DNA of 64,000 nt from an uncultured bacterium (GCA_903842795.1 CAIMNJ010000011.1:3166-67165); one strand, 5' to 3'; positions 3,535 through 29,385 are shown, counted from the stretch's first letter. The notes: generated by a model not told the origin, from the letters alone. Numbers and translations are program-made.

Positions 3535-6236
3535 CTTTGACTTTCTTTTTTTTGTTCATCTTCCTTAATCTTTTTTGCTGCTTCGCAAAAAGCTTTACCT
3601 CTTTCTTCGTAATTAGCAAAGCTATTGAAGCTGGCGCTGGCAGGACTTAATAATACAATGTCCCCAGAGTTGGCTTGCTTGTGAGCTGTGTCCACAGCTT
3701 CAGCAATTGTTTCTACCTTTTGAACTAATTGAGCGGGATTGTTTCCTAGTGTAAATTCAATTAATCTGGCTCCAGTAGTTGGTAGAGCGATTAACAACTT
3801 AACTTTATATTCAGCAATAATTTGAGCCAATTCGCTAAAATCTTGATTTCTTTCATAGCCGCCAGCAATCAGAATAACTGAACCCTTTGCAAAACTTCTG
3901 ATAGCCATCATGGCGGAATGGGGATTTGTAGAAATTGAATCATTAAAATATTTAACTCCATTGATTTCTGTTACAAATTCAATGCGATGTGGTAGACCAC
4001 GGAAATTCTTAATAGTTTTCTCAATTGAGTGATTTGTTGCCTCAAATAACTTCCCAACTAAGATTGCAGGCATAACATTGTAGAGATTGTGTTCTCCAAG
4101 AAGAGGAATGTCTTTGATTGCAATAATCTCTTCATTTTGGTAAAAGATTTTGTCATTTTTTTTGTAGACAAGTATTTCCTCATCTTGTTTTAAGTCGTGT
4201 CTGAGTTTTTTTGCAATACTGAGTTTTGCCATTTGATTGCTACCAGATAGCTTTGGGTTATAAATCAGATAATCATTTTCTTTTTGGTAGCGGGCGATAG
4301 CGGTTTTGGCTTCAAAATAACTTGCAAAGTCTTTGTAGTAATCCAAATGCTCTGACTTTATATCAAGAACTACTCCAACATGTGGACTATCGGTAAGTTC
4401 AGCTAATTGGTGACAAGATAATTCATCAACAATAAGTGTGTCTTTAGAAATTTTATCTAGCTGATTTAATGGAGCATCACCAATATTTCCAAGTAATATG
4501 ACTTTTTTTCCAGCGTCGCGCAAAATTTCATAGGTCAATTTACTAGTGGTACTTTTGCCTTTGGTGCCAGTAATACCGATAATTGTGCCCTGACATAAGG
4601 TAAAAAATATTTGTGTGTTTGATAAAATTTCACTTCCTTTGGCAATTGCTTTGGCAATTTCTTTAGTAGTAATTGGAATACCGGCTGTTTTGATAATGAT
4701 TTCGTATTGGTCAATTTTTTCTAGATAATTTTTGCCGAAGTAAGTTTTAATATTTTGGTCTTTGCTAAACGATTTTTCATGCTCATCTGCGATGGCGATT
4801 TGTTTATTTGGAAATTTTTTTCTCAAGAAATCAAGGGTTGATATCCCTTCGCGTCCCATGCCCAAGATAAGAACTGATTTTTTAGAAAGTTTATCCATCA
4901 ATTCTGTTTCTGCAATTTTTTGTTTGATTTGTTTTAAAAACATTGGTGGTGACTTGCTTTTTTTGTAGGCTAATACCAATGCTTGGCGAACTTCTGCAAA
5001 TGTGCCAACGCATTCAAAGGGTTTTTTATTTCCAAAGCCAGCTAAATCTAAAAAAGTTTGTTTTAGTGATTTTTTGGCAAAGAGATTTTCACTAAAAATT
5101 TTATTGCTTACAATTTCTTCTTCCAAGAACGCTGAAAACATGGTGTAGACGAAAGCACATTTTGGACAATCTTGGCACCAAATTCCTTTTTTTTGTCCGA
5201 CATTGCAACTCCTTAGAACTTCAAGAATTTTTTCAAATCTTTTGTCTTTAGTAGCGAATTGGCATAATCTTTGTGCGATTTCCAGTTCTGACAAAGATCT
5301 TAGTAGGGACAAATATTTTGGAAAATCATTTTTTTCTGAGAAAAGTTGTTCTTGACTATATTGGCTGAACTTTTTTTCAAAATCCAAGCTTTTAGAATAT
5401 TGGTGATTAATTTTTTGTCCCAAATAAATAAGATTTTCTTCCTCACTACTGGCTTCATTGCCAAGTAAAATATTTTCTTGACCATAAAGATAAGCAATAG
5501 ATGAGCCGGCAAAGGCAAGATAAGAGCTAAATGGAGTATGACCATTTAAATATCCTTGTTTATTCATTTCCAATAAGGTTGGATCGATGCTGCGCTCAGC
5601 TTCAATAATATTTTTACAATAACCATTTTTTTGTAAAATTAGAGCAATCTCTTTGGCTGCGGCAGAGTGTGGAGCAAGTAAAAATATATCGTAAGGCAAT
5701 TTCCTTTCTTCTATCATGGCTAAAACTGTAGAAGAGTCTTTTCCTCCGCCAACTGGTACAAGAATAGAGGAATTTTTTGGTGGATTAAATTTTGTTGTTA
5801 ATCCTTCTATTTCTGATGTTTTTTCTAATTTTATTTTAATGAAATCTTCTTTTGTAAAGTCAATTTTGTTTTGATAATAGAATTCACCAAGACCCTTAAT
5901 TAGGAGATCATGCCAAAAACTTTTGTTTTTTTCTGTAATTTGTCCTTGATGTTTAACGACTATTTCTTTTGGGCAAGCAACTTTGAAGTAGCTTGGAATT
6001 TCAGCCATTCCAAGATGAAAGAATAATTTGTTTAATTGCGGGTCTAGGGTTTCTTTGGTGGAAATTTGATTAATTATTTCTTGACTTATATTTTTGATTT
6101 TTAATTTTGGGTAAAATTTTATATTTGGTTCGAGTTCAAGGTCAAAAGTCAAAATCAGATCATTGTTTTCTTTTTTAAAATCAAATCCCCAATAAATCAG
6201 TCTAGGATGTTTTTTTCTTAAACTTTTGATGTCCAT
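3531..6236 (-). CDS. murD: UDP-MurNAc-L-Ala--D-Glu ligase (MurD) carrying an N-terminal ~470-aa PP-loop-like domain
   Basis: The C-terminal half has MurD motifs 'GITGTKGKSTT', 'LLGNIGDAPL' and 'ELSCHQLAEL' (ELSSFQL), plus an N-terminal Rossmann 'ILGMGREGIS'. The N-terminal half has 'VPVGGGKDSSTVL' (an SGGxDS-like PP-loop) and a 'CNVGQKKGIWCQDCPKC' Cys cluster. Start is placed at MDIKSLRK (6236) rather than ORF-track 6320, to avoid overlap with the divergent gene starting at 6297. Confidence 0.75.
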   Translation of the reverse strand: MDIKSLRKKHPRLIYWGFDFKKENNDLILTFDLELEPNIKFYPKLKIKNISQEIINQISTKETLDPQLNKLFFHLGMAEIPSYFKVACPKEIVVKHQGQITEKNKSFWHDLLIKGLGEFYYQNKIDFTKEDFIKIKLEKTSEIEGLTTKFNPPKNSSILVPVGGGKDSSTVLAMIEERKLPYDIFLLAPHSAAAKEIALILQKNGYCKNIIEAERSIDPTLLEMNKQGYLNGHTPFSSYLAFAGSSIAYLYGQENILLGNEASSEEENLIYLGQKINHQYSKSLDFEKKFSQYSQEQLFSEKNDFPKYLSLLRSLSELEIAQRLCQFATKDKRFEKILEVLRSCNVGQKKGIWCQDCPKCAFVYTMFSAFLEEEIVSNKIFSENLFAKKSLKQTFLDLAGFGNKKPFECVGTFAEVRQALVLAYKKSKSPPMFLKQIKQKIAETELMDKLSKKSVLILGMGREGISTLDFLRKKFPNKQIAIADEHEKSFSKDQNIKTYFGKNYLEKIDQYEIIIKTAGIPITTKEIAKAIAKGSEILSNTQIFFTLCQGTIIGITGTKGKSTTSKLTYEILRDAGKKVILLGNIGDAPLNQLDKISKDTLIVDELSCHQLAELTDSPHVGVVLDIKSEHLDYYKDFASYFEAKTAIARYQKENDYLIYNPKLSGSNQMAKLSIAKKLRHDLKQDEEILVYKKNDKIFYQNEEIIAIKDIPLLGEHNLYNVMPAILVGKLFEATNHSIEKTIKNFRGLPHRIEFVTEINGVKYFNDSISTNPHSAMMAIRSFAKGSVILIAGGYERNQDFSELAQIIAEYKVKLLIALPTTGARLIEFTLGNNPAQLVQKVETIAEAVDTAHKQANSGDIVLLSPASASFNSFANYEERGKAFCEAAKKIKEDEQKKESQR

Positions 6237-18471: not shown

Positions 18472-20439
18472 TTATAACTTTAGTGGTTTGTCTTCAGGAA
18501 TTTTGACTTCTTCTGTTGGTTTTTCCTCGTGACCATTTTGATCGTTATTGCGACCATCATAAGGTACACTCCATGGATCTTTTTTAGCTTTGGCGATGGA
18601 AGAAATGATCAAAGCGATAGCAATGAGTAAGATTAATCCAGCAATTGCTAGCCATTGCCATGAGAAGTTGGCCAACATTTGACCTAAGCTAGTTTGAAAT
18701 GGAGAAGTTTTTTTCTCGACTATAGTTGGTGCGCTAGTTGGCTCTGTCTTGGCACTATTGCTGGCAGATTGTTCTTTGTTGGTGGTAGAGCCAGTCACAC
18801 AAGAAATATCTTCTGGATCATCTGCTAAGCGGCATTTTCCTTTATAGCAGCGCATATCTGCTTCACAATCACGGTTGTTGTTGCAACCTTGGTTACAACT
18901 ATTAGTGGTCAGGTCAGTGGCTTCGCTTGGCAAAAGAATAGTTCTGCCAGAACTGTCTGTGTAGGAATTTATATTGCTGCCACCTTTATTTGAAGACAGT
19001 GAGGAAGATGAATTTATAGCAACCTTCTTCACATCACAGGTGGTGCTTTCCAGATTTTTTGGATCTCTGCAACGATTCCAGAAACAAGTTAGGCCAACTC
19101 CACAGTCATTGTTGCTGGCACAATATTCATTGCAACTACGATCGGAAGTTTGAATTCCTGGAGTAGCAAGACAAGCATTGTTACTTGGATTGGTTGCGTT
19201 TCTACATAAACCTTCAGCAGTACAGACTAGTCCAGGAGCACAGCTCTTGCTTTGATCACTGGTTGGACCACACTGATCATTACAATTCTTATATTTGCTC
19301 TGGTCGCCACTGCAATAGGTGATGTAATAGCGCACTGAGGAGATGTGTTGTCCGCCATTATCAGTGCTAAAAAGACGGAAGAAATATTCTTTATTTGGCT
19401 CAAAACTAATTGGACCCTTGGTGCCAGTGGCATGGGTAAATCCTTTAGCTGTCACCATAATCCAGTTGCCATTTGTTTGGTCAATGTTGCCGGCAACTTT
19501 TTTGTGATAAAAATCTCCAAAGTTTGGACTGGTGCTCACATCAATGTAAGTTACATTTGGATATTTTTTGTTGTCCCAGATTACGTATAGAGAATCTCCC
19601 TCAGTTGGTTGATTGAGACATTTATCGTTTGAAGAAAGGTAGAAGAAGCTACTGTTGGCATTAACAACACTATTGTCGGTACACTTCTGACTCAATTCTT
19701 TTAAGGTTTCGTCCTCATACCATTGACATCTTTCTGGTTGTGTTGAGTATTGTCTAGTTTGCCAGCCATTTTTACATTCTCCCCAAGAGGTATATTCGTA
19801 ATGACATTGAGAACGGTCAATACCATTGGTGGTTACGTAATATTGGAAATCTAAGACAGTTGGTTTTTGCAAAATATCTTCTGAAGTTTCATGTTCAATA
19901 ACGGTACTGTCTTGGCTGATTTTAATTTTGACACTACCTTCTTTTTTTGGAGTGAATTTTAGTTGAGAGATGGTTCTCATCTGGTTGTGGGTAGAAAAGG
20001 TAACGGCAGGATCTTTGGTGTTTAGAAGCAAAGTGACTGTGTAGCAATCTTTTTCACAAATACTTTCGACTACTTCTTGTTTGCTAATCTCTAATTCTGC
20101 TGGATAAGTTTCAGTAAAACTAATTTTGCTTTTATCTAAGAGACCTTTATCGACAATAATCTCAAAAATCAATTCTATTGCGTCTACTGACTTGTCTTTT
20201 GTGTTTAATTGCAAATTGATTTTTTGTTCTTCATCAACTTTGAGAGTACTCTGATCAAAAGGATAAGTATTGAGCTCTGCTAATCCAGAATCAACCATAG
20301 CAGCTTTTCTAGTGTCTAAGCTTAATTCGGAAGCTGGTTTTTTGAGGAACATGACTGCTAGTAGGGCAATCGACATAACTAGGACAATAAAAAATAAGCC
20401 GAAAACGGCCAGACGATTGCTTTTTTTAGTTTGCAGCAT
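18472..20439 (-). CDS. Cys-rich modular cell-surface protein (signal-anchor, FN3-like region, three 6-Cys modules, C-terminal TM)
   Basis: N-terminal TM 'LAVFGLFFIVLVMSIALLAVMFL'. Three tandem modules with spacing near C-x3-C-x5-C-x5-C-x4-C-x10-C: 'NCNDQCGPTSDQSKSCAPGLVCTAEGLCRN...AC', 'SCNEYCASNNDCGVGLTCFWNRCRD...TC' and 'SCNQGCNNNRDCEADMRCYKGKCRL...SC'. C-terminal TM 'WLAIAGLILLIAIALIISSIA' followed by a charged tail. Confidence 0.6.
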   Translation of the reverse strand: MLQTKKSNRLAVFGLFFIVLVMSIALLAVMFLKKPASELSLDTRKAAMVDSGLAELNTYPFDQSTLKVDEEQKINLQLNTKDKSVDAIELIFEIIVDKGLLDKSKISFTETYPAELEISKQEVVESICEKDCYTVTLLLNTKDPAVTFSTHNQMRTISQLKFTPKKEGSVKIKISQDSTVIEHETSEDILQKPTVLDFQYYVTTNGIDRSQCHYEYTSWGECKNGWQTRQYSTQPERCQWYEDETLKELSQKCTDNSVVNANSSFFYLSSNDKCLNQPTEGDSLYVIWDNKKYPNVTYIDVSTSPNFGDFYHKKVAGNIDQTNGNWIMVTAKGFTHATGTKGPISFEPNKEYFFRLFSTDNGGQHISSVRYYITYCSGDQSKYKNCNDQCGPTSDQSKSCAPGLVCTAEGLCRNATNPSNNACLATPGIQTSDRSCNEYCASNNDCGVGLTCFWNRCRDPKNLESTTCDVKKVAINSSSSLSSNKGGSNINSYTDSSGRTILLPSEATDLTTNSCNQGCNNNRDCEADMRCYKGKCRLADDPEDISCVTGSTTNKEQSASNSAKTEPTSAPTIVEKKTSPFQTSLGQMLANFSWQWLAIAGLILLIAIALIISSIAKAKKDPWSVPYDGRNNDQNGHEEKPTEEVKIPEDKPLKL

Positions 20440-20815
20440 TGGTTTCTTTCTCTTTTAAGTTGTTTAGATTGACTATTTTGTTAAATAAAGAGTAATCTTT
20501 GGCATCAATTTTGCCATCTTGATTAAGATCGGCTTTTAATGATTCGCTGTCACTCTTAAAAAATGCTTCTTTTATCAGTTTAGCATCTTTTTCATCAATT
20601 TTGCCATCTTGATTGAGGTCGGCATTCTTCAACAGGGAGGTGTCTGTCTTTTGGTAAACTCTTGAATCTTGAAATTTATTTCTTTTATATCCAATATGCC
20701 AAAAAGTAATAACAGCCATAATCAGAACTAAGGTCAAACCAAAAAGAATTAAATTAGATTCAATTTCTTCTTTTTTGACTCTAGAAATCTTTTTTGATGA
20801 CATCAGATAAAGCAT
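20426..20815 (-). CDS. Membrane-anchored protein with two dockerin-type (EF-hand-like) calcium-binding repeats
   Basis: TM 'LILFGLTLVLIMAVITFW', then 'ADLNQDGKIDEKDAKLI' and 'ADLNQDGKIDAKDYSLF'. These resemble dockerin type I repeats (DxNxDGKVNxxD). Overlaps the upstream gene by 14 nt. Confidence 0.55.
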   Translation of the reverse strand: MLYLMSSKKISRVKKEEIESNLILFGLTLVLIMAVITFWHIGYKRNKFQDSRVYQKTDTSLLKNADLNQDGKIDEKDAKLIKEAFFKSDSESLKADLNQDGKIDAKDYSLFNKIVNLNNLKEKETNAAN

Positions 20816-20897
20816 AGCTGATTTATGACTATTGGGTCAAGGATTAGTCTTCTTATGCTATACTTTTAGAACCTTATATTTAGAAAGGCCAACTTTT

Positions 20898-21785
20898 ATG
20901 TCAGAGAAATTAGTTCGTAAGGCAATTATCACTGATGCAGGTTTTGCAAGTCGTTATTTGCCAATTACTAAAACTATTCCTAAAGCCATGTTGCCAATGG
21001 GCAATCGCCCAATTATGCAGTTTGTGATCGAAGAATGCGTTGAGGCAGGTATAGAAGAAATTATTATTGTAGCTACCCCAGAGGGTAAGCCAATTTACGA
21101 AGATTACTTTAACAATGGTGTTAATCGAATTCGCAAACAGTTGGCAGCTCAGGGCAAAGAAGATCGTTATGAACCAGTTCAACAGGTTCTAGACTATCCA
21201 AAAATTACAGTAATTACTCAAGACCCTAGTTTGCCATATGGCAATGGTTCTCCAGTTGTTTCTGCCAAAGCTTTTGTGGAGGGGGAGAAGGCATTTTTGG
21301 TTATTTATAGTGATGACGTGGTTTTTGGTAATCCTGGTGATGCCAAAATGATGGTTGATGCCTATGAGGCAGATCCTACGGTAGATGGCATTATTATGTC
21401 TCAAGAGGTAGAACCAGAAGTAGTCAATAAATACGGTATCATCTCTTTTAGAACAGGCAGCAACGAATTGCTGGATAATATTATTGAAAAACCAGAAATT
21501 GGTGAAGCTCCATCAAATTTAGCTTCTTATGGTAGATACCTTTTGACTCCAAAAATTTTTGAACATCTTATTCCAAGTAACTCTGGCAAAGATGGTGAGC
21601 TTTGGACGGTTGATGCTATCACCAAAATAGCTAACTTGGGTAGAGTATTGGTAGAAAAAACCAAGGGTCAATGGATGACCACTGGTGATCCAGAAAATTA
21701 CTTCAAAGCTCATCTGAAATTTGTAATCGAAAACGAAAAATATGGCAACAAAATAAAAAATTGGGTGGAGGAACTTTCTAAATAA
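20898..21785 (+). CDS. galU: UTP--glucose-1-phosphate uridylyltransferase-like sugar nucleotidyltransferase
   Basis: 'KAIITDAGFASRYLPITKTIPKAMLPMGNRPIMQFVIEE' matches the GalU '[25 protein letters not shown]...PLIQYVVEE' motif. Start is taken at MSEKLV (20898). Confidence 0.75.
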   Translation: MSEKLVRKAIITDAGFASRYLPITKTIPKAMLPMGNRPIMQFVIEECVEAGIEEIIIVATPEGKPIYEDYFNNGVNRIRKQLAAQGKEDRYEPVQQVLDYPKITVITQDPSLPYGNGSPVVSAKAFVEGEKAFLVIYSDDVVFGNPGDAKMMVDAYEADPTVDGIIMSQEVEPEVVNKYGIISFRTGSNELLDNIIEKPEIGEAPSNLASYGRYLLTPKIFEHLIPSNSGKDGELWTVDAITKIANLGRVLVEKTKGQWMTTGDPENYFKAHLKFVIENEKYGNKIKNWVEELSK

Positions 21786-22203
21786 AAGTAATGTTCTCCA
21801 TTGTAGCAATTTTCTATTTATAACAAAAGATTGTTTTTTGGCTTTGTGGTTTTAAAATTATTATTTAGCACCTTAACTCCACTTTCTTTTGCAGGAAAGT
21901 AAAGCAATGTTTTTCCTCAACAGCTCTTTATAGGGCTTATAGGAGTATTTTGCTTCCGTGGAAGTAAAATCTTCTTGCCCACCTGGTTTTTTCCGGGGAA
22001 AGAGGCTTACTTTCCTGCAAAGGGAGGTGGAGATTGTTTTTTCAAGATGTCCAAAATTCGCTAAAGCATCTTTTGTACCATTTTTACTGCATTGGTCCAA
22101 AATTCGCTAAAGCATCTTTTGTACCAGCTGCTTTTTGCAATGCTGTCTGCATTGCAAAAAGACAGGGTCCAAAATATAATACTCAATGTCTTTCGTCTTA
22201 TTT
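21786..22203 (+). other. Structured noncoding region upstream of the tRNA cluster (candidate ncRNA or leader)
   Basis: Long-range inverted repeat 21887-21905 / 22005-22021 (17/18 bp). Tandem 32-nt direct repeats. Mutually exclusive hairpins at 22132-22165. No convincing ORF. Confidence 0.3.
22049..22126 (+). repeat. Two exact 32-nt direct repeats 'GTCCAAAATTCGCTAAAGCATCTTTTGTACCA' (22049-22080 and 22095-22126), with a partial third copy at 22167-22178
   Basis: Found by direct reading. The spacer between full copies is 14 nt. The third copy matches only 9 nt, and no cas genes are present. Confidence 0.8.
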
Positions 22204-22276
22204 GCCTTTGTAGCTCAGTCGGTAGAGCGCAGTCTTGGTAAGACTGAGGTCTCGGGTCCGATCCCCGACAAAGGCT
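22204..22276 (+). tRNA. tRNA-Thr (anticodon GGU)
   Basis: Cloverleaf by eye: acceptor GCCTTTG/CAAAGGC, D-arm GCTC-AGTCGGTA-GAGC, anticodon stem CAGTC/GACTG with loop TTGGTAA, T-arm TCGGG-TCCGATC-CCCGA. CCA is not encoded. Confidence 0.85.
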
Positions 22277-22313
22277 CACTTGCAAAGGCGCGCTGCGCGC
22301 GCCATCTGCAAAA

Positions 22314-22395
22314 GCCAAGGTACTCAAGCGGTCAACGAGGGCAGTCTGTAAAACTGCTGGCCTAGCCTACGTAGGTTCGAATCCTTCCCTTGGCA
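22314..22395 (+). tRNA. tRNA-Tyr (anticodon GUA), class II with long variable arm
   Basis: Acceptor GCCAAGG/CCTTGGC, anticodon stem GCAGT/ACTGC with loop CTGTAAA, long variable arm, T-loop TTCGAAT. Confidence 0.8.
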
Positions 22396-22424
22396 CAGAT
22401 CTCTAGCTTACAAAGGGAGAATTT

Positions 22425-22498
22425 GCCCCCCTAGCTCAATTGGTTAGAGCACCTGTTTTGTAAACAGGAGGTTCCGGGTTCGATTCCCGGGGGTGGCT
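22425..22498 (+). tRNA. tRNA-Thr (anticodon UGU)
   Basis: D-arm GCTC-AATTGGTTA-GAGC, anticodon stem CCTGT/ACAGG with loop TTTGTAA, T-arm CCGGG-TTCGATT-CCCGG. The acceptor stem has one C:U mismatch. Confidence 0.8.
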
Positions 22499-22548
22499 CA
22501 AGAGATGACTCTTAAAATATAAAAAAGTTGTGATAAAATATCAAATCT

Positions 22549-22752
22549 ATGGCAAGCAAGAAAAAAGGTCCAAGACAATCAATCGGTTTACAATGTAGTG
22601 TTTGTAATGCTTTCGGTTACGTAAGCGAATACAACAAAAACAATGAGATTCTCAAGAAACAAACCTCAGGTGAGGGTAGTTTTCCTCTGAACAAATACTG
22701 TAGCGTTTGTCGCAAGCATACTGCTCACAAATTGATGAAAAAATTAAAATAA
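22549..22752 (+). CDS. rpmG: Ribosomal protein L33 (zinc-ribbon type)
   Basis: 67 aa with 'CSVCN...KYCSVCRKHTAHKLMKK', a CxxC...CxxC ribbon matching the Bacillus-type L33 'KYCSxCxxHTxH'. Confidence 0.9.
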   Translation: MASKKKGPRQSIGLQCSVCNAFGYVSEYNKNNEILKKQTSGEGSFPLNKYCSVCRKHTAHKLMKKLK

Positions 22753-22787: not shown

Positions 22788-24260
22788 TTAGTTTAGTTTT
22801 ACTATTTTCAGAATATTTTCCGCTCCGTGATAGAAGTCATGATCAAGCTGTCTACTGTTTTTCATGGCTTGTCCAATCCAGGATCGCTGTTCATTTGCTT
22901 TTAATTTAGGTACAGGCCTGGTCCCGCCAGCTGGAATTGCGCTTTCGGAAGTATGCTCATTGGTCTGAGCGAGTTCAGTTAATTGTTTAGCAATATTGTT
23001 TGTTTGAGCTTGTATTGCTGTGCCATTTTTTTCAAAAACTGCACGTACGTTATATTCCCACTCACCCCATTCCTTGAGAGTGAGTAGAGCAGCTCCAGAA
23101 GCGACTGCGTCGTAGGCCATGTCTCCAGAAGGCTTGCTGATAAAAACATCGGCCCAAGAAAAGCCTTTTTGAATCAATAATTCATTAGCATCAACAATTT
23201 GTGGATGATAGATAATTCTAAAGCGATGCTTATTTTCTTCGTTTTTACTGGTTTTGATCTTGTTATTAATGCCAAAATTGGCAGGGTCATTTGGGCTAAT
23301 GATTTGATAAGCAAGGTCATTAGCTTGAGCAATTTCAATGGCCATATTTTTATGATCTTCATGGGTGCCGGCATAAAAAACCAATTGGGTCTCGACTAAA
23401 TCAGTTTTTTGTCCCAAGGCTTGTTGCTTTAGTATTGGCAACATTTGCTCCAAAATGCTTTTTATTTCTGGTTTATTAGTGCCAAGGCCACCGGTAGTTA
23501 AGCAAATTCTAAGTGGTCTTTCGTCTGTCCAAATTGTTTTTTCTTTGTGGCAATCGACTATTCTTGGGTCAATTGGTGGGCCAGTGACAATGACTTTGTC
23601 TTTTATTTGGTCCTTTGGTATTTTTTTGCCAATTTGTTTGGCAACTTCAAAAAATGATTCTTTGGTGGCTTCATCAAAGACCAAAAATTTCATATTTGGC
23701 AAATGTGCATTTTGCAAATAATCGCTACGCACGTGTGGATCTGTGATCATTTGCACAACTTTTTTACCCTCTGCAGCTAGAATATTGCCCGTCACAATGT
23801 GAAAGGAAAGAATGGTTTTTTTGATTCCAGAACCAAGATAAAGAGTGGGAGGAGTGACATTATCTAAAATTGGCATTTTGGAACGGCCGAATTTATCGAC
23901 GATATCTTTTAACATTTTTAAAATTGGCCAGCGAGCAATAGTTCTGCCAATTAAATCTGTTATTTGTACGCTTTTAAAAGCGGCGTTGCTGACGTAATTA
24001 GTGCTATCTACAAGCCAAGCTTTTTTAGGATCAATGCTATTTCCCCAGGCTTGTATTGCTATGCCGAGAGCCATGGAGTAGTGAGCGCGTGAAAGCACAA
24101 TGTCGGTACTATTGTCTTTTTCTTTTTGATGATGAAGACCCTTGAGGTCTTCTCGAAAGGAAGCGGAAACAGTGATAATGGGAATTTTGGTTTGTTCGAG
24201 GAGTTTTTTGTCTGCTTGGTAAATCTTTTTTAATTCTTTGGCGATTTCATTATCTTGCAT
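22788..24260 (-). CDS. GT-B glycosyltransferase, family-28-like (MGDG synthase/UgtP/MurG-like C-terminal domain)
   Basis: 'WADVFISKPSGDMAYDAVASGAALLTL' resembles the GT28 C-terminal donor-binding motif. The ORF-track start at 24401 would read through tRNA-Trp, so the start is moved to MQDNEIAK at 24260. Confidence 0.6.
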   Translation of the reverse strand: MQDNEIAKELKKIYQADKKLLEQTKIPIITVSASFREDLKGLHHQKEKDNSTDIVLSRAHYSMALGIAIQAWGNSIDPKKAWLVDSTNYVSNAAFKSVQITDLIGRTIARWPILKMLKDIVDKFGRSKMPILDNVTPPTLYLGSGIKKTILSFHIVTGNILAAEGKKVVQMITDPHVRSDYLQNAHLPNMKFLVFDEATKESFFEVAKQIGKKIPKDQIKDKVIVTGPPIDPRIVDCHKEKTIWTDERPLRICLTTGGLGTNKPEIKSILEQMLPILKQQALGQKTDLVETQLVFYAGTHEDHKNMAIEIAQANDLAYQIISPNDPANFGINNKIKTSKNEENKHRFRIIYHPQIVDANELLIQKGFSWADVFISKPSGDMAYDAVASGAALLTLKEWGEWEYNVRAVFEKNGTAIQAQTNNIAKQLTELAQTNEHTSESAIPAGGTRPVPKLKANEQRSWIGQAMKNSRQLDHDFYHGAENILKIVKLN

Positions 24261-24365
24261 GCTTTTTAGTGTAGCAGTTTTTTGGTGGTGGAGGAAATGA
24301 TGATGCGTTAGCTCTGGCTTTATTGAGCAATGATTATTATAATTGGGCTCTAAGAAATTTAACAA

Positions 24366-24436
24366 AGGGCGGTATTTCAATGGCAGAATAGGGGTCTCCA
24401 AAACCTTTGATGAGGGTTCGATTCCTTCCCGCCCTG
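24366..24436 (+). tRNA. tRNA-Trp (anticodon CCA)
   Basis: Acceptor AGGGCGG/CCGCCCT, anticodon stem GGGGT/ACCTT (two G:U pairs) with loop CTCCAAA, T-arm GAGGG-TTCGATT-CCTTC. Confidence 0.75.
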
Positions 24437-24462
24437 CAAAAAAATATTCAAATTGTAAAACG

Positions 24463-28389: not shown

Positions 28390-29385
28390 TTAGGATTTAA
28401 GGATATTTTTGCACTCGTTCCAAGTGCATAGGTTTTTGCCTTCTATTTGCACTTGGTCCAAAATCAAAACCTCATTTTCTTTGTGGCAGGCCAAAATTTT
28501 CATTCTTTTTTCGCCATTTGTAGTTGGGATGATGGTCCACAAATTTGGCCAAGGAGAAAAGGCAAGACTAGCATTTTTGATAAGAGTAATTTGCTTTGAT
28601 TTGTTTTCGCAAATGTTTTGATTATTTAGTAAATCAGTTAGAAGTCCGGGATTGTTTTCTTCAGTCTCTTCAATTTTGGTCTTTTGTTGCTCATTCATTA
28701 GTCTGAGTAGATTGGTCCAAGAAACGAAACTATCTTCTTTGCTTAGACGACGCGCGACCATAGTTGGGCTATTGTCTGGTTGAATAATTGGTTGGATTTT
28801 TTTGTTGGCAAAGTCATTGATTAAGTCAGCCAGTTTTTCTTTTATCAAAGCAAAGGCTGCCTGGTAATATTCGTTTTGAGTCCAATTCTGTTTTAAAGTA
28901 AATGGCAATTGTGTCAAAATTGGTCCCTGATCCAGAGAAGAATTCATTATCATTAGGGTAATTGCTGACTCTAGACTATTTTGATCTAAATCCTGAAAAA
29001 GAATGCAAAACTGACCAGGAGAACTGCCTCGCCATTTGGGTAGAAGAGAAGGATGAATATTAAGTGGAGCAATTTTTGGTAATTTTAATAGCCAATTTGG
29101 AATAAAATAACCAAAATCAACCACTAATAAGAAGTCAATTTCTCCATTTTGCTCAAATTCTTTGAGTAAACTACGATTAATTTTTTGTTCCACCAAAAAT
29201 GTTTTAATCTTGTTTTCTTGTGACCAGACATGTAAAGGATTTTGAATCAACTCTTTTTTTCTACCGACTGTTTTTGGTGTGGGCGAGAGAGTCCAAGTAA
29301 TTTCAAAACGGTCATCTTTTGCCAAAGCTTTGGCCATTGAGACGGTATTGTTGGTTGAGCCGGCAATAGCGATTCTGTATTTCAT
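28390..29385 (-). CDS. fmt: Methionyl-tRNA formyltransferase
   Basis: 'NIHPSLLPKWRGSSP' matches the Fmt 'HASLLPRWRGAAPI' signature; immediately downstream of def. Confidence 0.9.
   Translation of the reverse strand: MKYRIAIAGSTNNTVSMAKALAKDDRFEITWTLSPTPKTVGRKKELIQNPLHVWSQENKIKTFLVEQKINRSLLKEFEQNGEIDFLLVVDFGYFIPNWLLKLPKIAPLNIHPSLLPKWRGSSPGQFCILFQDLDQNSLESAITLMIMNSSLDQGPILTQLPFTLKQNWTQNEYYQAAFALIKEKLADLINDFANKKIQPIIQPDNSPTMVARRLSKEDSFVSWTNLLRLMNEQQKTKIEETEENNPGLLTDLLNNQNICENKSKQITLIKNASLAFSPWPNLWTIIPTTNGEKRMKILACHKENEVLILDQVQIEGKNLCTWNECKNILKS

Follow-up and report, generated by a model that had tools for sequence, protein, structure and literature searches.

A candidate divergent 6S-like RNA gene between galU and a tRNA-Thr/Tyr operon in Patescibacteria

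The window analysed here is a stretch of 64,000 nt of DNA from an uncultured bacterium. Our subject is the spacer that follows a galU-like nucleotidyl-transferase gene (20832-21785, + strand; Pfam NTP_transferase) and precedes the genes for tRNA-Thr(GGT), tRNA-Tyr(GTA) and tRNA-Thr(TGT) (22204-22499, + strand), with rpmG (22549-22752) lying downstream of this tRNA-Thr/Tyr/Thr cluster. The short open reading frames in the spacer lie inside or overlap the structured RNA or the tRNA genes, and its conservation takes the form of compensatory base-pair changes. A preliminary description had treated these roughly 420 nt as one structured unit. The spacer is instead composed of two independent features, namely an RNA gene at approximately 21865-22042 (+ strand) and the promoter of the tRNA operon at 22049-22180, with a terminator-like end between them.

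Four observations concern the flanking genes. The galU reading frame is listed from a TTG at 20832, and since the alignment with its relatives begins only at residue 22-28, the true start is probably further downstream. Right after the galU stop codon, the motif ATTGTAGCAATTTT (21800-21813; ATTRTAGCAATTTT in relatives) is kept in close relatives and may be a remnant of the galU terminator. Upstream of galU and divergent from it, a 129-aa protein (20426-20815, - strand) contains dockerin type I and EF-hand-like calcium-binding repeats. Between rpmG and tRNA-Trp lies a 537-aa reading frame (22788-24401, - strand) with a weak match to DUF6938 (26.4 bits, against a cut-off of 27); because its listed 5′ end overlaps the tRNA-Trp gene (24366-24437), its start is probably internal.

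For comparison, 80 loci were sampled through a GalU protein search. Nearly all derive from metagenome-assembled genomes of Patescibacteria/CPR, under the labels Pacebacteria, Paceibacterota, Woesebacteria, Microgenomates and Saccharibacteria, and several carry record titles reading "uncultured Pseudomonadales". The order galU, spacer, tRNA-Thr/Tyr/Thr is widely retained among the related loci. One relative, L056 (CP011212.1, a complete genome labelled "candidate division TM6"), encodes a GalU 76% identical to that of the window and has a spacer 77% identical, including the 6S-like RNA and the promoter repeats described below; since all other relatives are Patescibacteria, this label looks inconsistent.

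Immediately upstream of the tRNA genes, a promoter scan detected a sigma-70-type promoter for the tRNA-Thr/Tyr/Thr-rpmG operon (22152-22180, + strand; 10/12 matches), in which a predicted -35 hexamer TTGCAA (22152-22157) is separated by 17 nt from a predicted -10 hexamer TATAAT (22175-22180), and from which transcription is predicted to start near 22187. A TATAAT is found 15-28 nt upstream of tRNA-Thr in 11/11 close relatives. The DNA leading up to the promoter is repetitive. As the preliminary description reported, two identical 32-nt direct repeats, each made up of GTCCAAAAT and TCGCTAAAGCATCTTTTGTACCA, occupy 22049-22080 and 22095-22126; none was expected in 100 shuffles, and the 64-kb window holds no other copy. 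The partial third copy, GGTCCAAAAT, is also present, although it measures 10 nt rather than 9 and lies at 22166-22175, inside the 17-nt promoter spacer. Similarly, the palindrome termed stem A exists but extends to a perfect 13 bp (22131-22143 with 22149-22161) instead of 12, its 3′ arm carrying the -35 hexamer, and stem B is formed by exact 6-bp reverse complements (CTGTCT, 22143-22148; AGACAG, 22160-22165), the two stems excluding each other as had been proposed. GGTCCRAAAT, here GGTCCAAAAT, occurs once more at 28455-28464, where 0.24 matches are expected by chance in the window, and this copy is probably a coincidence; among the related loci it is found in the tRNA promoters of the six closest relatives and in one other place, in L033. 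Two further possibilities for the palindrome were considered and rejected: a minus-strand promoter built on its other TTGCAA, for which inspection by eye revealed no acceptable, correctly spaced -10, and a terminator of the RNA gene, as no U-tract follows the palindrome on either strand.

Comparison with the relatives shows that the DNA ahead of the -10 is put together from modules, namely the elements S (GTCCRAAAT), U (TCGC...GCATCTTTYGTACC) and H (CTTTTTG-N-CAAAAAG, with the -35). Element U is absent from L002, L004, L058, L074 and L075, present once in L001, twice in the window, L040, L045 and L056, and four times in L007, and the palindromic element H varies from 0 to 2 copies among close relatives. 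In the relatives the palindrome is also shorter, at 7-8 bp (CTTTTTG-N-CAAAAAG), the 13-bp form of the window representing an expansion; stem B is found in no relative, and it exists only because of that expansion, both it and the extended stem A being specific to the window. Repeat copies that are identical within a genome and different between genomes are a signature of recent slippage or duplication. On this evidence, promoter-proximal DNA has recently been duplicated in tandem to give the 32-nt repeats, the GGTCCAAAAT copy and the palindrome. These sequences could be neutral products of slippage, and their role is probably at most modulatory, for example as factor or UP-like sites, and not that of an RNA switch. 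The promoters of stable RNAs (tRNA and rRNA) may have upstream activating sequences such as UP elements and Fis sites. The present locus resembles them: a strong, consensus-like promoter immediately precedes the tRNA operon, and A/T-rich repeats extend upstream of the -35 and over it. A difference is that the repeats are exact and recent, and that their number ranges from 0 to 4 among close relatives. They provide a small example of copy-number-variable promoter architecture, the significance of which is unproven.

These results bear on the suggestion that the spacer is a riboswitch, attenuator or regulatory leader controlling the tRNA-Thr/Tyr/Thr-rpmG transcript through the exclusive hairpins A and B. 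Such an element would indeed sit upstream of the operon, and both stems are real. Yet they occupy 22131-22165, upstream of the conserved predicted -10 or over the -35, and hence fall outside the predicted tRNA transcript. No U-tract follows stem A, and a terminator-like U-tract separates the RNA from the tRNAs; the tRNAs own a conserved TATAAT, and in seven loci they are encoded on the other strand. Relatives have 0-4 repeat copies and 0-2 palindromes, and stem B and the extended stem A are confined to the window. Furthermore, no cis-regulatory family of Rfam reached its gathering score, the only such listing at E <= 10 being the Bacteroid-trp leader, whose match at 21722-21835 lies upstream of the RNA and, at 22.3 bits (E = 6.3), is below its gathering score of 49. 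The riboswitch or attenuator is therefore largely refuted, and we consider it highly improbable.

The first half of the spacer is of a different nature. The long inverted repeat noted there is real and longer than first claimed, with 26-nt arms (21877-21902 and 22007-22032) that are 88% Watson-Crick complementary and enclose 104 nt, and its mismatches become G·U pairs when read on the + strand. On that strand, 21870-22045 folds with -75.4 kcal/mol (z = -7.6; 0/200 shuffles as good), compared to -53.6 kcal/mol (z = -3.8) on the - strand. A covariance model, R1, was built from a trimmed 22-sequence MAFFT alignment, and a broader family model, R2, was used alongside it; R1 scores the window at 158.5 bits on the + strand versus 26.3 bits on the - strand. 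Both the fold and the model scores thus favour the + strand, from which the RNA is read.

Alignment of the orthologous intergenic regions revealed abundant compensatory changes, the paired segments being conserved in the relatives. RNAalifold, applied to a 25-sequence MAFFT alignment, returned 46 pairs, of which 37 show compensatory changes. The trimmed 22-sequence alignment has 91.8% of its cells paired, a share that drops to 47-56% once the 3′ partners are slid by 1-3 columns; double changes occur in 37/48 pairs, and the covariation score is 0.674 compared to 0.15-0.22 after sliding, with 0/500 shuffles reaching any of the observed measures. A 55-sequence alignment gave similar values (92.3% of cells paired versus 44-50% slid; double changes in 44/48 pairs), but since it was fitted to the model, the MAFFT alignment, being independent, provides the cleaner control. 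The rod-shaped fold, in which a closing stem is formed from the 5′ and 3′ ends and is followed by an apical stem, is backed by covariation in both alignments. The proposal of a non-coding RNA gene in this region is thereby borne out, in the form of a conserved, covarying RNA at approximately 21865-22042 on the + strand.

The ends of this RNA can be placed by prediction. The covariance-model core spans 21874-22032, and a predicted -10 box, TAAAAT (21853-21858, + strand), lies 15 nt before the model start, implying transcription from approximately 21863-21868. TAAAAT, TAGAAT or TACAAT stands 14-17 nt 5′ of the model start in 11/11 close relatives, and TATAGT, TATACT or TATAAT occupies the equivalent place in distant members, such that nearly every member of the family has a -10-like box. 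At the other end, a T6 tract (22037-22042, + strand) directly follows the closing stem and was matched in a terminator scan, and a T-run is found at the same place in most family members; closing stem and T6 together form a predicted terminator-like 3′ end, which precedes the first tRNA by 160 nt. The predicted transcript (21865-22042, + strand) is accordingly about 178 nt long, the rod itself measuring approximately 160-178 nt. With its predicted promoter and ends, the RNA would be a stand-alone gene.

In most related loci, blastn and nhmmer place the conserved segment around 21874-22032 just 3′ of galU. With R1, + strand matches at E <= 3e-5 are obtained in 57 related loci as well as in the window, and L048 is matched at E = 0.036. 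Of the 80 Patescibacteria loci anchored on galU, 58 contain the RNA, in every case on the galU strand. In 21 galU loci without it, mostly with Saccharibacteria labels, R2 finds nothing within 3 kb of galU. This constant orientation, a start that usually falls 60-150 nt past the galU stop codon, and the resemblance of the closing stem and U-tract to a terminator are what might be expected of a galU 3′ untranslated region, that is, no separate gene but a complex transcription stop or the processed tail of an mRNA. However, nearly all members have a -10-like box ahead of the RNA, and in eight loci (L008, L011, L022, L023, L043, L044, L048 and L068) the RNA is found 0.4-2 kb beyond galU. A terminator, moreover, has no need of the invariant single-stranded blocks, the fixed 15/14-nt bubble or the covarying inner hairpin described below, and an origin as galU mRNA tail is accordingly very unlikely.

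The conserved linkage of the RNA is with the tRNA-Thr/Tyr cluster more than with galU. It remains adjacent to these genes when the tRNAs are inverted and when as much as 2 kb separates it from galU; in seven loci (L022, L023, L025, L043, L048, L054 and L068) the RNA is on the + strand and the neighbouring tRNA-Thr/Tyr genes are on the - strand, in convergent arrangement. In L051 (3921-4149), position 4074 is the last of the RNA and 4077 the first of tRNA-Thr(GGT). As this 2-nt gap leaves no room for a terminator or promoter, the two are presumably co-transcribed there, and the 3′ end of the RNA would then presumably come from RNase P cleavage. As a separate observation, RF00557, the ribosomal protein L10 leader, was matched over its full length in L025 (120-256, - strand) and L043 (495-640, - strand); with approximately 36 bits, these matches fall below the gathering score of 44, and the leader may be a further RNA family that tends to be under-called in this clade.

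The predicted anatomy of the RNA in the window, all on the + strand, is as follows. The closing stem comprises 26 bp (21877-21902 with 22007-22032), and all 22 pairs of helices 1 and 2 show compensatory changes in the 55 sequences. An asymmetric internal loop separates it from a P2-like helix, UUCCU (21913-21917) with GGGGA (21995-21999), which closes a central bubble. This helix is near-invariant, with 98% of cells paired, and such variation as occurs is mostly one-sided, from U-A to U-G. The 5′ strand of the bubble, CAACAGCUCUUUAUA (21918-21932), is 15 nt long and is the proposed template and start of a product RNA, and the 3′ strand, ACCUGGUUUUUUCC (21981-21994), is 14 nt long; these are also the modal lengths in the family, found in 39/59 and 34/59 members, respectively. 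On one side the bubble is flanked by the CC/GG of the UUCCU/GGGGA helix, and on the other by invariant GGG/CCC pairs, with which the apical stem (21933-21980) begins. The latter stem runs from GGGC (21933-21936) with GCCC (21977-21980), through internal loops, to a terminal CGUG loop (21957-21960), and 15/15 pairs of helices 6 and 7 covary, the GGG/CCC pairs being invariant. The most conserved block of the family is UUCCUCAACA in the 5′ bubble strand; conservation is highest on the 5′ side, at UUUUCCUCAACA, and next highest on the 3′ side, at GCCCACCUGG...GGGGAA.

A further hairpin is predicted within the 3′ strand of the bubble, pairing CCUGG (21982-21986) with CCGGG (21993-21997). It is predicted in 46/55 distinct members, and its pairs 4 and 5 covary among GC, CG, AU, UG and GU. 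Its 3′ arm takes three G's of the P2 3′ strand, and since these are the G's that pair with UUCCU, the hairpin and the P2-like helix are mutually exclusive.

At gathering thresholds, Rfam reports only tRNAs, both in the window and in 20 related loci. Among all Rfam families, however, the 6S family RF00013 is the only one that aligns to the RNA over its full length. In the window it was found at 21876-22034 (+ strand) with 19.7 bits and E = 0.082 in a permissive Rfam scan of 601 nt. In the relatives, full-length matches (model 1-187) on the + strand at the family coordinates score 26.8 bits for L074, 30.2 bits for L023 and 33.6 bits for L048, the last of these with E = 0.0045 in a 69-kb search with 4227 families and 1.7e-5 in a 261-nt search. 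The bubble, the GGG/CCC pairs and CCCACCUGG align without gaps to upper-case positions of the RF00013 consensus, in which the bubble measures 16/13 nt. L023 and L048 are also confident members of the present family (R1 E = 3e-6 and R2 E = 8e-8), and as they are both family members and 6S matches, they form a chain of similarity from the RNA of the window to the 6S model.

The scores nonetheless define the limits of this similarity. With a range of 19.7-33.6 bits, every member falls short of the RF00013 gathering score of 46.4 bits, and the permissive Rfam scan of ten mid-distance family members yielded no 6S match at E <= 10. In the reciprocal direction, R1 gave no match to ssrS at the E. coli locus, and R2 aligned over its full length to 1482-1665, where ssrS is annotated at 1484-1666, with 5.4 bits and a non-significant E = 1.2; in these searches of the E. 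coli locus the top matches of the two models were trivial hairpins. The sub-gathering scores and the failed detection of ssrS are the reasons for which the RNA is filed as a divergent 6S-like RNA. Of the other candidates, SRP RNA, tmRNA, RNase P and leaders of the ribosomal-protein or T-box type gave no Rfam match in the region even at E <= 10, and ARAGORN found no tmRNA. Matches of miRNA and snoRNA families to 22131-22161 were dismissed as generic hairpin matches.

6S RNAs are rod-shaped, with a central bubble between closing and apical stems and little sequence identity (PMC8876501). The RNA described here shares with E. coli-type 6S/SsrS (RF00013) a rod of approximately 160-180 nt with a closing stem, an internal loop, a short P2 helix and an apical stem, as well as a bubble, here of 15/14 nt, that is flanked by G-C pairs and has CCCACCUGG on its 3′ strand. 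In the release of 6S RNA, product-RNA synthesis unwinds P2, and in the E. coli type a 3′-bubble hairpin forms with the freed 3′ strand of P2 (PMC8876501). The predicted 3′-bubble hairpin likewise borrows bases of the P2 3′ strand and would be completed only once P2 is opened, as in E. coli-type 6S (PMC8876501), although it has 5-6 bp compared to 9 bp in the E. coli RNA. There are other differences: the RNA is shorter, with a near-perfect, A/U-rich closing stem that is better paired than those of textbook 6S RNAs, and whereas E. coli ssrS adjoins the gene for 5-formyl-THF cyclo-ligase, it lies between galU and a tRNA cluster.

The RNA can also be compared with 6S-1 of Bacillus subtilis, in which a small 3′-bubble hairpin of 5-7 bp is predicted already for the free RNA (PMC8876501). 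The minimum-energy fold of the present RNA likewise contains its small 3′-bubble hairpin. A G-initiated product RNA is plausible here. A further comparison is with the 6S-related Ms1 of Actinobacteria, a rod-like, RNA polymerase-associated small RNA from a phylum in which the standard 6S model fails (PMC4191392, PMC9130861). Ms1 has approximately 300 nt, binds the core enzyme and is without the canonical bubble, the dimensions of which are kept in the present RNA.

The alternative that has to be weighed most directly against a 6S assignment is that this structured small RNA is specific to its lineage and functions differently, for instance in connection with the adjacent tRNA-Thr/Tyr cluster or in RNA processing; its likeness to 6S would then be convergent or coincidental. 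The sub-gathering scores of all Rfam 6S matches and the failure to detect E. coli ssrS reciprocally are what such an RNA would give, and its persistence beside tRNA-Thr/Tyr, even at loci with galU at a distance of 0.4-2 kb or with inverted tRNAs, would also find an explanation, as would the 2-nt gap to tRNA-Thr in L051. Conversely, four members match RF00013 over its full length and on the same strand with no competing family, and the bubble size, its G-C flanks, CCCACCUGG and the competing 3′-bubble hairpin are specific traits of 6S RNA. We therefore regard a function unrelated to 6S as unlikely. It is similarly doubtful that the RNA represents an undescribed rod-shaped class of the Microgenomates/Paceibacteria branch of the CPR, in which the link to tRNA genes would reflect a role in tRNA biology or translation instead of polymerase sequestration. 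Taken together, the RNA at approximately 21865-22042 is probably a divergent, unannotated 6S-like RNA (ssrS) of a Patescibacteria lineage, its function being read from its structure.

By analogy with characterised 6S RNAs, the following cycle can be envisaged. Under nutrient scarcity, the bubble would mimic an open promoter and trap the sigma-70 holoenzyme. On outgrowth, the invariant UUUUCCUCAAC block would serve the polymerase as template for a short product RNA such as 5′-GUUGAGGAAAAAC, the synthesis of which would unwind P2 and free its G's. The covarying 3′-bubble hairpin, CCUGG/CCGGG, could then lock in, and the RNA would be released.

The genomes of the ultra-small Patescibacteria (CPR) are tiny, and little is understood of how these bacteria are regulated. 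In our literature search, no paper connected 6S RNA with Patescibacteria, the candidate phyla radiation, Saccharibacteria or Parcubacteria, and threshold-based Rfam annotation misses the RNA in every locus tested (the window and 20 related loci). The 55-sequence covarying alignment can now be used to extend the 6S model and to annotate the gene across the clade. Judged from sequence, the unannotated RNA gene itself appears to be new, while 6S RNA as a class is already known; as 6S RNA is widespread in bacteria, its occurrence in Patescibacteria would strike a specialist as useful and tidy and not as startling. If the RNA is indeed the 6S RNA of these organisms, then even bacteria so reduced would retain a global brake on RNA polymerase, through which growth phase would be coupled to transcription.
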